The notes under the pieces were generated by a model. That model had not been told where the DNA came from. It searched no databases and saw nothing but the letters and a program-made list of their open reading frames with translations. A program made the position numbers and the translations under genes. From sequence record SRR20825019_54: 41,968 bases of DNA; one strand, 5' to 3'. Of the stretch, positions 39,572 through 41,968 are shown in pieces (the first letter of the stretch is position 1; each line of letters opens with the position of its first letter).

Positions 39572-40222
39572 TTAGTTGCGAATGCTGTTGAGCGATTCGA
39601 TAAATGTTTTTAAATCTTCTATACTCTTAAGCCCTGGCGCTGATTCGAATTTACTGTTCACATCAACGGCATAACAATTTTTTGAGGCCGGACTGCTTAA
39701 AAACTCCTGTAGATCTTGGATGGATTCCAATCCGATGCCACCACTTAAAAAGTAAGGCTTTTGGGACGGATACTTTTCAAGAACGGACCAATCAAATGTA
39801 TAGCCATTGCCACCGGGCAGTTTCCCCTTGGTATCAAAAAGATAAAAATCACAGACTTCTTCGTAGTCCTTCAAAATGGAAAAATCAAAATCATCTTTAA
39901 TGGAAAACACTTTGATGATGTCTAGATTTCTCGACGGCGCTCGAAATGACAGAAAGCTATTTTTTAATTGTTGACAGTACTTGGCACTTTCCTTTCCATG
40001 GAGCTGTATGGCATCCAATTGATGTTGGGACACTTTTTCCAAAACATATTCTTGGTCGGTATCGACGAATACACCTACTTTTTTAATTTGACTGGGAATC
40101 TTTGGCATGTCACCAGAAAAATAACGGGCCGATGGTTCCCAAAAAATAAACCCTAAATAATCAGGTCGCAATTGAGCGACTTTTGATGGATTATGGTTCA
40201 TGCCGCAAACCTTTAGCTTCAT
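39572..40222 (-). CDS. trpF: Phosphoribosylanthranilate isomerase (9-aa loop insertion)
   Basis: KVCG, GFIF, VGVFV, QLHGKE, LFDT, GGNG.TFDW, LSGGI, DVNSKFE. Confidence 0.95.
   Translation of the reverse strand: MKLKVCGMNHNPSKVAQLRPDYLGFIFWEPSARYFSGDMPKIPSQIKKVGVFVDTDQEYVLEKVSQHQLDAIQLHGKESAKYCQQLKNSFLSFRAPSRNLDIIKVFSIKDDFDFSILKDYEEVCDFYLFDTKGKLPGGNGYTFDWSVLEKYPSQKPYFLSGGIGLESIQDLQEFLSSPASKNCYAVDVNSKFESAPGLKSIEDLKTFIESLNSIRN
39924..39951. repeat. About 27-28-bp palindromic REP-like element inside trpF
   Basis: AGATTTCTCGACGGCGCTCGAAATGACA, encoding SFRAPSRNL on the minus strand. Confidence 0.7.
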
Positions 40223-41004
40223 TGTTCCAGTCTTTTTATGAATTCCGCTGCGTTTTTACCGGGGTCGTCCGTTTTCATAAAATTCTCGCCTATCAAAAAT
40301 CCTTGATAGCTAAATTCCTTTAAATCCCTAATGGCCTCAACGGAACTTATACCGCTTTCTGAAACCTTTACAAAATCATCTGGGATTTGTTGTGATAATG
40401 TTCTGCTGATATCCAAGTCTACCTCGAAAGATTTTAGGTTACGGTTGTTCACGCCCAGCATATCCAAACTTGGCATCAACGATTTTTCGAGTTCTTCTTG
40501 ATTGTGTACTTCCAAGAGCACGTCCAATCCCAGTCCCTTTGCCAGTTCGGATAGCGTTTTTATTTCGTCCCTTCTCAAAATTGCCGCAATCAATAAAATA
40601 ACATCAGCTCCATAGGCCTTGGCCTCTACGATTTGATATTCATCTATGATGAATTCCTTACGCAAGATGGGCATATTGGTGGACGCTCTTGCCAACAGTA
40701 GATCATCAATGGAACCGCCAAAATATTTACCATCCGTTAGTACTGACATGCCACATGCGCCTGCCTCGGAATACCCCTTTGCTACGTCTTGTACACTCAA
40801 ACTTTGATTGATAACGGATTTTGAAGGCGAACGTCTTTTATGTTCCGCGATTATGCCTGAGTTGCTTTTGCGCAATACTTCGGCAAGTGAAATGGATGTA
40901 CGCTCCATCATCACCGAAGCTTCCAATTGGGCCTGTGTGATGAGCGATTTTTTTAAATCGACTTCTATGCGTTTGTTTGCTACTATTTTATCTAAAATGT
41001 TCAT
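40219..41004 (-). CDS. trpC: Indole-3-glycerol phosphate synthase
   Basis: IIAEHKRRSPSK, SVLTD, LRKEFI, LLEVH, GVNNRNL, SESGI, LIGE. Confidence 0.97.
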   Translation of the reverse strand: MNILDKIVANKRIEVDLKKSLITQAQLEASVMMERTSISLAEVLRKSNSGIIAEHKRRSPSKSVINQSLSVQDVAKGYSEAGACGMSVLTDGKYFGGSIDDLLLARASTNMPILRKEFIIDEYQIVEAKAYGADVILLIAAILRRDEIKTLSELAKGLGLDVLLEVHNQEELEKSLMPSLDMLGVNNRNLKSFEVDLDISRTLSQQIPDDFVKVSESGISSVEAIRDLKEFSYQGFLIGENFMKTDDPGKNAAEFIKRLEQ

Positions 41005-41015
41005 ATTTTATTTTG

Positions 41016-41050
41016 AAGCCCGAAGTCGGTAGTCCGAAGTCGGTAACTTT
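41016..41050 (+). repeat. Degenerate 7-bp tandem array, left flank of the four-helix-bundle gene
   Basis: AAGCCCG AAGTCGG TAGTCCG AAGTCGG TAACTTT; includes an exact 12-bp direct repeat CCGAAGTCGGTA at 41020 and 41034. Confidence 0.8.
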
Positions 41051-41056
41051 TTATAA

Positions 41057-41422
41057 TTATTTGATGTTTTTTTTAAAAGCGACCAACATGTTCATTGAAT
41101 TGAAAGCTTCAATATAAAGCTCATCAAATCTTTCGCTTGAAATATAATTTTTTCTATTCGCTTTGTGTAAGCAGGTAACAACTTCACTTAAAGACCTAAT
41201 TGCATAACCAACGAATTTTTTAAATTCAGGATTTGTCTGTCCTATAGAATCTTCTGAAATGTTTAATGCTATTGAATCCACAGCTCGTCTTATCTGTGAG
41301 CTGAGATTGTAAACCTCGTTTTTTGGGAAGAGTTTCGTTATGTTATTTATGGCTTCTCCAAAATCCATGGCACACTGCCAAACAATTATCTTTTCAAACT
41401 TGAATTTTGACTCTATTATCAC
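41057..41422 (-). CDS. Four helix bundle protein (23S rRNA IVP / TIGR02436-like family)
   Basis: FEKIIVWQ.A...FPKNEVYNLSSQIRRAVDSIALNISE...EF.KF...A..SL.EV; GTG start uncertain. Confidence 0.88.
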   Translation of the reverse strand: MIIESKFKFEKIIVWQCAMDFGEAINNITKLFPKNEVYNLSSQIRRAVDSIALNISEDSIGQTNPEFKKFVGYAIRSLSEVVTCLHKANRKNYISSERFDELYIEAFNSMNMLVAFKKNIK

Positions 41423-41445
41423 TGTTGATTTATTTCTAGTCTCAT

Positions 41446-41480
41446 TAAACTTCGGACCTCAGTCTTCCGACTCCTGACTT
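41446..41480 (-). repeat. Degenerate 7-bp tandem array, right flank, inverted relative to the left array
   Basis: Minus strand reads AAGTCAG GAGTCGG AAGACTG AGGTCCG AAGTTTA, starting at the last base of the trpD stop codon. Confidence 0.75.
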
Positions 41481-41968
41481 TAATTAGATAAAGATTGCAA
41501 TTTTTTGAGTGATGCCAACCCTTTGCCGCCGAGTAATGACTCTTTAGCTTTTTCAAAACCTTCTTTTGGGGTGATGCCTTTTACCGTTGCAATGGCTATT
41601 CCTGCATTGGCACAGACCACGTTGTTTTGGGCCTCGGTACCTTTTCCTTGCAAAATATTCATAAATATTTGGGCGGATTCCGCAATGTCGCTACCTCCGA
41701 TAATGTCCTCTTGCGAAACCTTTTCCACGCCAAAATCCGAAGGCGTTAGCATTGCCTCTGTATGATTTGATATGGTCTTGGTATCGCCTGTCAAGGAGAT
41801 TTCATCATATCCGTCCAAAGCATTTAAAATGGTGAATTTCTTATCTGTATTCTGATACAGATACCCATACATCCTTGCCAATTCCAAATTATAGACCCCT
41901 ACCATTTGGTTTTTGGGGAATGCTGGGTTTACCATTGGTCCTAACATATTAAAGAATGTTTTTACCGC
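41480..41968 (-). CDS. trpD: Anthranilate phosphoribosyltransferase (5' part beyond the right edge)
   Basis: Frame is open to the edge: AVKTFFNMLGPMVNP...QMVGVY...DGYDEIS...NAG; directly upstream of trpC in the operon. Confidence 0.95.
   Translation of the reverse strand, partial: AVKTFFNMLGPMVNPAFPKNQMVGVYNLELARMYGYLYQNTDKKFTILNALDGYDEISLTGDTKTISNHTEAMLTPSDFGVEKVSQEDIIGGSDIAESAQIFMNILQGKGTEAQNNVVCANAGIAIATVKGITPKEGFEKAKESLLGGKGLASLKKLQSLSN

Follow-up and report, generated by a model that had tools for sequence, protein, structure and literature searches.

The 41,968-nucleotide stretch of DNA SRR20825019_54 (the window, by which we mean the whole of that stretch) carries, between trpD and trpC, a small gene of the four-helix-bundle family PF05635/TIGR02436 that is enclosed by two arrays of degenerate heptamers in inverted orientation. 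What kind of element is this, and what are its arrays for? To the first question, comparison with other genomes gives an answer: the window copy is a resident member of a recurrent gene-in-stem class, bracketed by inverted arrays of ~7-nt units whose sequence is specific to the protein clade. To the second, we give an even chance to the reading that the window cassette is transcribed by read-through, is organised like an intervening sequence (IVS) with a gene in its stem, and has arms that are recognition arrays for its own protein.

A PF05635 gene between inverted heptamer arms

Gene and arms together form one 475-nt insert between trpD and trpC. The features, in the direction of reading, are as follows.

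41480–41968, minus strand: 3′ part of trpD (anthranilate phosphoribosyltransferase), from the PF00591 match (7.1e-26) and the open reading frame (ORF) list; stop codon TAA at 41482–41480
41449–41479, minus strand: 5′ arm, AGTCAGG AGTCGGA AGACTGA GGTCCGA AGT; lag-7 score 17/28
41423–41448, minus strand: 5′ spacer from the arm to the start codon, 26 nt, poorly conserved
41057–41422, minus strand: four-helix-bundle gene (PF05635/TIGR02436), 121 amino acids, from the profile match and the ORF list
41045–41056, minus strand: 3′ spacer, TTATAAAAAGTT, 12 nt, not conserved (identity 0.40)
41015–41044, minus strand: 3′ arm, ACCGACTTCGGACTACCGACTTCGGGCTTC, 30 nt, about four inverted units, from Tandem Repeats Finder (TRF) and the repeat search
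41005–41014, minus strand: A/T-rich leader from the 3′ arm to the trpC ATG, AAAATAAAAT, 10 nt (identity 0.48)
40219–41004, minus strand: trpC (indole-3-glycerol-phosphate synthase), 261 amino acids, PF00218 match 1.4e-79; ATG at 41002–41004

The 5′ arm (31 nt, four to five heptamers, purine-rich on the sense strand) begins right behind the trpD stop codon. The unit in the window arms is AGTCNRR or, read in the other phase, GRRGWCN, and each arm holds about four of them. A preliminary description of the locus had reported a 121-amino-acid ORF splitting trpD from trpC, degenerate heptamers in inverted orientation on both sides of it, and a perfect 9-nt inverted repeat within them (41032–41040 and 41449–41457). 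All of these we find again, at the places given, as we do the positions of the arrays, one adjoining the trpD stop and the other stopping 10–11 nt short of the trpC ATG. Longer inverted matches between the arms extend over 29 nt (72% complementary) and 24 nt (75%). The 3′ arm contains a 14-nt direct repeat in two copies, and TRF reports one period-7 tandem repeat in the 42-kb window, at 41024–41045. The 5′ spacer holds a short ATG-started reading frame, which is absent from the orthologues.

Lag 7 scores best in both window flanks, with 17/28, a value reached by 2 of 129 control segments. Considered by itself, the complementarity of one arm to the other is marginal, with a Smith–Waterman score of 21 where the 95th percentile of the controls is 20, so that the window copy is a weak example of inverted arms. 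The feature is beyond doubt only once it is seen in the context of its family.

The encoded protein matches PF05635 (1.1e-28, 99.9 bits, cut-off 33.8) and TIGR02436 (2.2e-27, 95.4 bits, cut-off 24). Its profile matches are to the PF05635 family alone, with none to a Y1 (HUH) transposase, and no transposase is encoded within the cassette, as the preliminary description had it. The nearest solved relatives are 2gsc (7e-13) and 2rld (5e-4), each deposited with five chains, and by similarity to these a four-helix-bundle pentamer is the candidate fold of the window protein.

A second perfect 9-nt inverted repeat, TTTATCTAA / TTAGATAAA (40987–40995 and 41484–41492), lies outside the arms, in the last trpD codons and in trpC codons 4–7. 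As it is absent from two of the orthologous loci described below (L101 and L103), it is probably due to chance.

The architecture recurs in paralogues and relatives

The nearest genome, G001, shares all sampled words of the window and is 100% complete, and it stands in here for the window's own genome. It has eight PF05635 matches, one of them with an internal stop and one (L004) being the window's copy. The flanks of the paralogues had been proposed as a check on the preliminary description, and the outcome is clear: all eight copies carry ~7-nt repeats of their own on both sides, in inverted orientation, and each has a different unit (AATCAAG, GATGTTG and CACCAAA, the last in 12 copies, are examples). 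The architecture is common to the G001 paralogues; the repeat sequence is not.

We then considered 66 cassettes from one bacterial family, made up of the eight from G001, 29 further loci (those listed out of a total of over 240 PF05635 matches, which come from 61 genera within the family) and the 29 closest homologues of the window protein drawn from 401 genomes. The 129 control segments for the flank tests were taken 600 nt away. The best lag was 7 in 53 of the 66 upstream flanks and 46 of the 66 downstream flanks, compared with 13 of the 129 controls. When the upstream flank was aligned with the reverse-complemented downstream flank, the mean local score was 26.8, compared with 18.7 in direct orientation, 16.1 for shuffles and 16.0 for distant segments; inverted complementarity lay above the 95th percentile of the controls in 49/66 cassettes. 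The number of PF05635 genes per genus sample ranges from 0 to 12.

The upstream neighbour of the cassette is co-oriented with it in 55/66 cases and opposite in three, and the downstream neighbour is co-oriented in 59/66 and opposite in none. The 5′ arm is the more purine-rich of the two on the sense strand in 54/66 cassettes (27 of 34 site groups). The cassettes reside inside operons, co-oriented with their neighbours and with the purine-rich arm upstream, and this fixed orientation to transcription, together with the purine asymmetry, points to a strand-specific role.

The GC content of 0.333 measured at 41100–41399, which agrees with the ~33% counted by hand in the preliminary description, compares with 0.40–0.45 in the trp genes. 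As a sign of recent transfer, low GC can be ruled out: in 66/66 cassettes, old orthologous ones included, the ORF has a lower GC content than its flanks, which makes this a family trait.

Several variants of the layout were seen. Arms whose period is 8 or 9 (units such as TTAGATTA) or is indistinct were found at L001, L039, L045, L051 and L058, which occupy one common site, and at L047, which lies elsewhere; one clade prefers a lag of 8–9. At L067, L125 and L132 the arrays on both sides are direct rather than inverted, and the gene lies as if within one long array. A thiolase-like gene in a fatty-acid oxidation operon has orthologous cassettes on both of its sides, in five genera each (L002, L055, L059, L063 and L064; L044, L049, L053, L065 and L066), and the unit AATCAAG is retained in the five genera with the downstream cassette. 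In another genus, a PF05635 cassette with the unit GAGATTT/GAGACAA lies between trpG and trpD (L040, G025:C1:115232–115546), so that a second junction of the trp operon has also received a cassette.

Repeat unit and protein clade vary together

Among cassettes at non-orthologous sites, the similarity of the arms rises with the identity of the proteins (Mantel r 0.449 over 2079 pairs, a value reached in 0 of 2000 permutations). In the protein tree, 7 of the 12 site groups with several members are single clades. In 37/49 comparisons the two arms of one cassette are a better match for each other than for arms that belong with a close protein, and in 49/49 the arms of close-protein cassettes match better than those of distant clades.

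A split-sample test gave the same picture for the unit of the window. The motif GAWGWC was fixed on the family set and then counted in independent relatives, that is, cassettes with proteins at least 59% identical that are not at trpD|trpC (n=26, several of them loci at one common site in Lutibacter, so that the independent sites are fewer, perhaps 15). Two or more copies were present in the sense 5′ flank of 22/26 and in the reverse-complemented 3′ flank of 20/26, with mean counts of 3.4 and 2.8, respectively, against 0.27 in 260-nt controls. The same count was reached in 0/14 cassettes with less similar proteins and in 0/35 of other clades. The relatives that have the motif span Flavobacteriales, Prolixibacteraceae and other Bacteroidales-type metagenome-assembled genomes (MAGs). 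Since neutral DNA would be randomised at 60–70% protein identity, the sequence of the unit is itself constrained, and not the pairing of the arms alone. GRRGWCN goes with the protein clade across unrelated sites and across Bacteroidota orders.

Protein and arms are conserved, the spacers are not

Ten orthologues of the cassette at the trpD–trpC junction were aligned, and identities were calculated between group A (the window, L101 and L102) and group B (L103–L108), leaving out L109, which is frameshifted. The values for the parts of the cassette were:

5′ arm: 0.73
5′ spacer: 0.56, excluding a ~29-column indel (group B)
codon position 1: 0.87
codon position 2: 0.90
codon position 3: 0.56
3′ spacer: 0.40
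3′ arm: 0.77
leader to trpC: 0.48

Both arms are thus more conserved than the spacers and the third codon positions, and the first and second codon positions more than the third, so that the protein and both arms are under purifying selection and the spacers are not. Within the orthologue arms the core AGTC is almost invariant and the other three positions of the unit vary. Between the window, L101 and L102, 28 of the 30 bases of the 3′ arm (ACCGACTTCGGACTACCGACTTCGGGCT) are identical.

The orthologue set also contains two decay events. One is the change of the start codon from ATG to ATA in the window; the other is a 1-nt deletion near codon 108, with a frameshift, in L109 (Flagellimonas marinaquae). 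The shifted ORF of L109 runs on through the 3′ arm, which is intact, and stops 2 nt short of the trpC ATG.

The cassette is old at a junction that is often tight

Of the other genera, 28 have both genes in the locus. The stop codon of trpD overlaps or abuts the start of trpC in nine of them; the remaining gaps are of 4 nt in one genus and of 18–315 nt in 18. That the junction is otherwise tight supports the earlier proposal that gene and arms are one insertion. No PF05635 gene lies at the trpD–trpC junction in any of these 28 genera, and a tblastn search of the other long spacers with 66 query proteins gave no hit to a gene remnant better than E 0.15. The gene-less sites for which the preliminary description had proposed a search do exist, but they are not all free of arrays: at 5 of the 28 junctions (L012, L015, L024, L018 and L023) there are heptamer arrays, built of other units, and no gene. 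Three of these, TAGTTAG ×6 at L012 (G090), TTATTGG ×4 at L015 (G065) and TTGTTAG ×10 at L024 (G064), begin inside the trpD stop codon and are followed by a conserved non-coding element of ~230 nt, whose ends are conserved (AAAAGTCAAG... and ...TTTTGCATCAAGGCAAAATGAA) and whose 3′ end motif is common to G115. The elements of these three loci gave no Rfam match and hold no trace of a four-helix-bundle gene. The arrays at L018 and L023 are short.

In G296, a genome of the same genus, an unrelated hairpin-like element of 92 nt replaces the cassette, and G115 has a different spacer of 135 nt. For small inserts the trpD–trpC boundary is a hot spot: at L098 (the locus in G296, for example GTCATTCC...GGAATC...), L016, L021, L037 and L038, this junction is occupied by small hairpins of the repetitive extragenic palindromic (REP) or miniature inverted-repeat transposable element (MITE) type.

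A scan of named genome records found the cassette at exactly the trpD–trpC junction in nine more species (L101–L109), which are Muricauda, Flagellimonas and Allomuricauda species, a Galbibacter and one MAG. Their proteins are 74–88% identical to that of the window; G381 also has a cassette at trpD|trpC, with a protein 71% identical. In a tree of TrpC and TrpD with 41 rows, the window's genome, G296 and eight of the L101–L109 species form a clade (SH-aLRT 99). The cassette is present in nine of the ten rows of that clade, the exception being G296, which is the sister of the window's genome (support 99). The identity of the cassette protein to that of the window tracks the identity of the host genes: for L101 the values are 88% for the cassette protein, 89% for TrpC and 91% for TrpD, and for L108 they are 74%, 75% and 76%. 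The simplest history is one old insertion followed by vertical descent, with loss or replacement in G296, and the small mobile cassette proposed in the preliminary description, in so far as it implies recent mobility, has to be given up in favour of an old, conserved and vertically inherited one. For the relation of G381 and Galbibacter to this insertion, presence or absence of the cassette needs at least four changes on the host tree. The free protein tree separates the window and G381, which would fit two insertions, but an approximately unbiased (AU) test of one clade gave p 0.436, that is, no rejection.

Pairing, binding and alternative explanations

How might such a cassette work? We envisage that, lacking its own promoter, it is read through as a part of the trp mRNA, in which its two arms would form an imperfect ~23-bp stem with the ORF in the loop and so keep the insertion tolerable for trpC. 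The stem may be likened to that of the ORF-bearing IVSs of 23S rRNA, whose stems are cut by RNase III. The arrays would be recognition sites of the encoded, presumably ring-forming protein, on RNA or, less likely, on DNA, and binding of its own arrays by the protein could lead to control of its own expression, to processing of the stem or to upkeep of the arrays. Whilst the co-variation of unit and protein and the conservation of the arms are direct observations, binding and processing are steps that we infer. A scan for sigma-70 promoters and terminators, which does not cover Bacteroidota promoters, gave nothing above shuffles.

That the arms could pair in the trp transcript had been suggested from the start, and the predicted folds bear this out. 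When 40995–41490 is folded (−109.1 kcal/mol, z −3.2, none of 100 shuffles as good), the arms close the structure, both at minimum free energy (MFE) and in the centroid. The two window arms alone give ~23 bp with three 1×1 mismatches at −32.2 kcal/mol, the orthologues ranging from −32 to −56. Duplexes of a cassette's own arms are more stable than those of mismatched arms (−37.8 compared with −26.9).

There is, however, a good deal to set against the reading of the cassette as a read-through-transcribed, IVS-like gene with recognition arrays for its own protein. The window arms are just 72–75% complementary. Sense mismatches are as often of the A.C type (71) as compatible with G.U (76, p 0.74), the more stable duplex is the sense one in 35 cassettes and the antisense one in 31 (p 0.82), and among the 10 orthologues, where compensatory change was sought, own arms beat cross-species arms in only five. 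With the G.U and the sense/antisense tests flat, pairing in RNA and in DNA is indistinguishable. Array lengths vary and those of the two arms are uncorrelated (r 0.16), so that long one-sided arrays are not explicable by pairing. Five units per arm, to match a pentamer, is likewise not what is found, the median being 2.6–2.8 strict units with up to 12. In the window itself, 41414–41422 reads GTG ATA ATA, where the ATG start of all nine orthologues has become ATA. The sole start candidate is then the GTG one codon upstream of the lost ATG, and it is possible that translation is weak or that the copy is beginning to decay. Of the assembled contigs from four RNA runs, X1–X3 are long and represent a relative in which 122 other letters replace the cassette. 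Descent together with homogenisation of the arrays could also be a partial cause of the link between unit and protein.

The dispersed arrays are a further difficulty. In G001, six further loci (among L150–L162), all at a great distance from PF05635 matches, hold runs of 3 to ~16 units of GGAGTCA, GAAGTCA or GAGGTCA:

C60:97199–97225
C60:99441–99488
C60:131988–132028
C60:192927–193037
C60:205982–206001
C1:23231–23271

All are on one strand of their contigs, and four of the six lie directly behind a co-stranded open frame or a terminator-like hairpin. They sit in composite tracts of other heptamers (GGCAGTR, AAGACAT and CCCTTCA). In favour of a link to the protein, a census of 121 genera, in which a close relative of the window protein was defined by E ≤ 1e-39 and the counts include the cassettes' own arms, found GRRGWCN arrays (three exact units) in 8/13 genomes with a close relative and in 10/108 others (Fisher p 4e-5). 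A second comparison, of GGCAGT arrays with the protein clade of L067, replicated this only weakly (5/26 compared with 5/95, p 0.04), and G016 (14 matches), G043 and G001 have GGCAGT arrays and no close protein of the L067 clade. A relation in trans between the protein and the dispersed arrays is possible, but it is not strict.

Three other observations concern the form of the arms and the transcripts. Transversion-type mismatches dominate (286/433), and the look of the arms is that of two opposite-facing sets of motifs more than of a helix under careful upkeep. We had also considered that one base in each unit is flipped out, but this did not hold up: the mismatch bump at 7 is small (0.11, compared with 0.09 at 6 and 0.08 at 8). 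The remaining RNA-run contig, X4, is a single contig of 250 nt inside trpD; assembled contigs cannot show transcript ends.

Could the arms simply be those of an RNA intervening sequence, which need only pair for excision by RNase III, with an unrelated protein in the loop and a unit free to drift? The arms do pair in the predicted folds, own arms beat those of close relatives in 37/49, the cassettes are co-oriented with their operons, and the IVS of rRNA, cut by RNase III, is a precedent (PMC4990558). What makes this explanation unlikely is the unit itself, whose sequence is conserved across sites and orders (22/26), which pairing alone does not require, and whose period of 7 is left without an explanation. 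Nor would pairing alone lead one to expect arm lengths that are unequal and uncorrelated, the lack of a compensatory or G.U signal, or arrays that are one-sided or gene-less. We consider it distinctly unlikely that the cassette is a non-autonomous DNA element of the MITE type or of the REPIN type (REP doublets forming hairpins), with the arrays as terminal repeats for a transposase supplied in trans and the gene as cargo or specificity factor. Such an element would fit the inverted arms, the occurrence of one protein clade at at least 12 different sites, the differences in presence within genera, the dispersed arrays of the cassette's unit in G001 and the failure to find a signal specific to RNA; G001 also has one Y1_Tnp gene. 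Yet Y1_Tnp is missing from 21 of the 46 genomes with the gene (association Fisher p 0.08), and RVT_1 from 27 of the 46 (p 0.22) as well as from G001, so that dependence on a reverse transcriptase or a Y1 transposase is unsupported. The ends show no target-site duplication, the repeat search of the window having found no direct repeat that brackets the insert, although with an ancestral target in which stop and start codons overlap a duplication of 2–4 nt would be invisible. The 7 of 12 multi-member site groups that are single clades are consistent with long vertical residence, and the orientation linked to transcription, with the purine asymmetry, points to a role of one strand.

Long vertical residence is equally what one would expect of a domesticated host function, in which the protein would serve host operons (trp in this case) as a small regulator or chaperone that binds nucleic acid, and the arrays would be operator or untranslated-region sites of the usual kind. 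The protein's rate of change is about as low as that of TrpC and TrpD, and arrays occur at the 3′ ends of other genes. We nevertheless judge this very unlikely: related cassettes lie in many unrelated operons, copy number runs from 0 to 12 among genera, the sister species has lost the cassette, L109 is frameshifted and the window copy is without its ATG. That the whole arrangement is a coincidence, with slippage having produced heptamer repeats at the ends of genes and an unrelated gene lying among them as a passenger, is already disfavoured and seems to us extremely improbable. Gene-less heptamer arrays are indeed present at 5/28 junctions and in the composite tracts of G001, and an excess of heptamer repeats in bacteria has been published (PMC4692102, PMC4679880). 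Chance repeats would hardly give a best lag of 7 in 53 and 46 of 66 flanks as against 13/129 controls, arms that are inverted and clade-specific, or arms conserved above neutral sites.

We return, then, to the cassette as an IVS-like gene whose arms are recognised by its own protein, and a wider proposal can be attached to it tentatively. PF05635 proteins may in general be sequence-specific readers of heptamer arrays, the cognate unit bracketing their own gene and being scattered behind other genes as well, in a genome-wide system like that of REPINs and their RAYTs (REP-associated tyrosine transposases); we regard this as possible but rather doubtful. If it were true, gene and arrays would amount to post-transcriptional control or to propagation of arrays by means of a ring-shaped nucleic-acid-binding protein. 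The IVSs of rRNA, the Avd protein of diversity-generating retroelements (DGRs) and the bacterial heptamer excess would then be three faces of one partnership between protein and repeat.

Relation to known systems

Heptanucleotide repeats are familiar from cyanobacteria, where they are known as short tandemly repeated repetitive (STRR) sequences. Elsewhere, Rehm et al. describe heptamer arrays in Xanthomonas (GGGAATC), with 70–75 convergent, that is inverted, pairs per genome (PMC4692102), and MacGregor describes TAACTGA arrays in Beggiatoaceae and also in some Bacteroidetes (PMC4679880). Like those of the window, these are tandem 7-nt units that are intergenic and near gene ends. The window-type arrays differ in that they enclose a gene and vary with its clade, and the terms 'four helix', '23S' and 'intervening' are absent from the main texts of both papers. 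PF05635/TIGR02436, a very large family without a characterised function, is termed uncharacterised or Avd-like in print (PMC4990558, PMC10053308), and the heptamer repeat excess is presented as lacking an accepted explanation in the text of PMC4692102. A search of full text outside subscription journals and supplements found no published description of operon-borne PF05635 genes with inverted heptamer arrays around them, and the recurrent cassette class appears to be absent from print. With a gene and arms that are inherited together and a unit matched to the clade, the two puzzles become one testable question.

The REP/REPIN–RAYT systems combine a single-copy gene, flanked by inverted cognate repeats, with dispersed intergenic copies of the repeat, long vertical inheritance and a repeat that varies with the clade. 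The window cassette resembles them in its inverted flanking arrays and in the arrays of the same unit at six places in G001 away from PF05635. It differs in that its protein, a four-helix bundle, has no known catalytic motifs and is not a Y1 transposase, in that its repeats are tandem heptamers and not palindromic REPs, and in that the link between dispersed arrays and gene is only partial. TRAP and HutP are RNA-binding regulators that form homo-oligomeric rings and read short repeated motifs. Whilst their folds are unrelated and the lengths of the present arrays do not match a subunit number, the unit of the window is comparable in having a conserved core of 4–6 nt with variable positions around it.

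Avd itself is a homologue, a pentameric four-helix-bundle barrel, and the RNA stem-loop that it binds adjoins its own gene (bioRxiv 10.1101/2023.10.23.563531, PMC10053308). The Avd pentamer is reported to hold a specific RNA stem-loop with flipped-out bases in the crevices between protomers, and in DGR RNA the sequences that flank the cargo pair with each other (bioRxiv 10.1101/2023.10.23.563531). Unlike a DGR, the window cassette has no reverse transcriptase, template repeat or variable repeat, and its neighbours are trp genes.

The IVSs of 23S rRNA in Coxiella burnetii, Leptospira and others share with the window cassette a gene of the S23p/PF05635 family in the loop, complementary termini and, in Coxiella, heptamers upstream of the ORF. 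In the account given for Coxiella, the S23p ORF lies in a stem of 28 bp, with one mismatch and one bulge, that is cut by RNase III; GACAGAT heptamers stand upstream of the ORF, two or three in tandem depending on the strain plus one degenerate copy; and the IVS is sporadic among strains, has no transposase and encodes a protein judged to be decaying (PMC4990558). In contrast, the window cassette lies between trp genes and not in helix 25 or 45 of 23S rRNA, its closing stem is a predicted one and far less perfect (72–75%), and its protein is, to judge from the codon positions, clearly under purifying selection. An IVS-like architecture is thus not restricted to rRNA, and operon junctions can, as in this clade, hold such inserts over the long term with the downstream gene kept.

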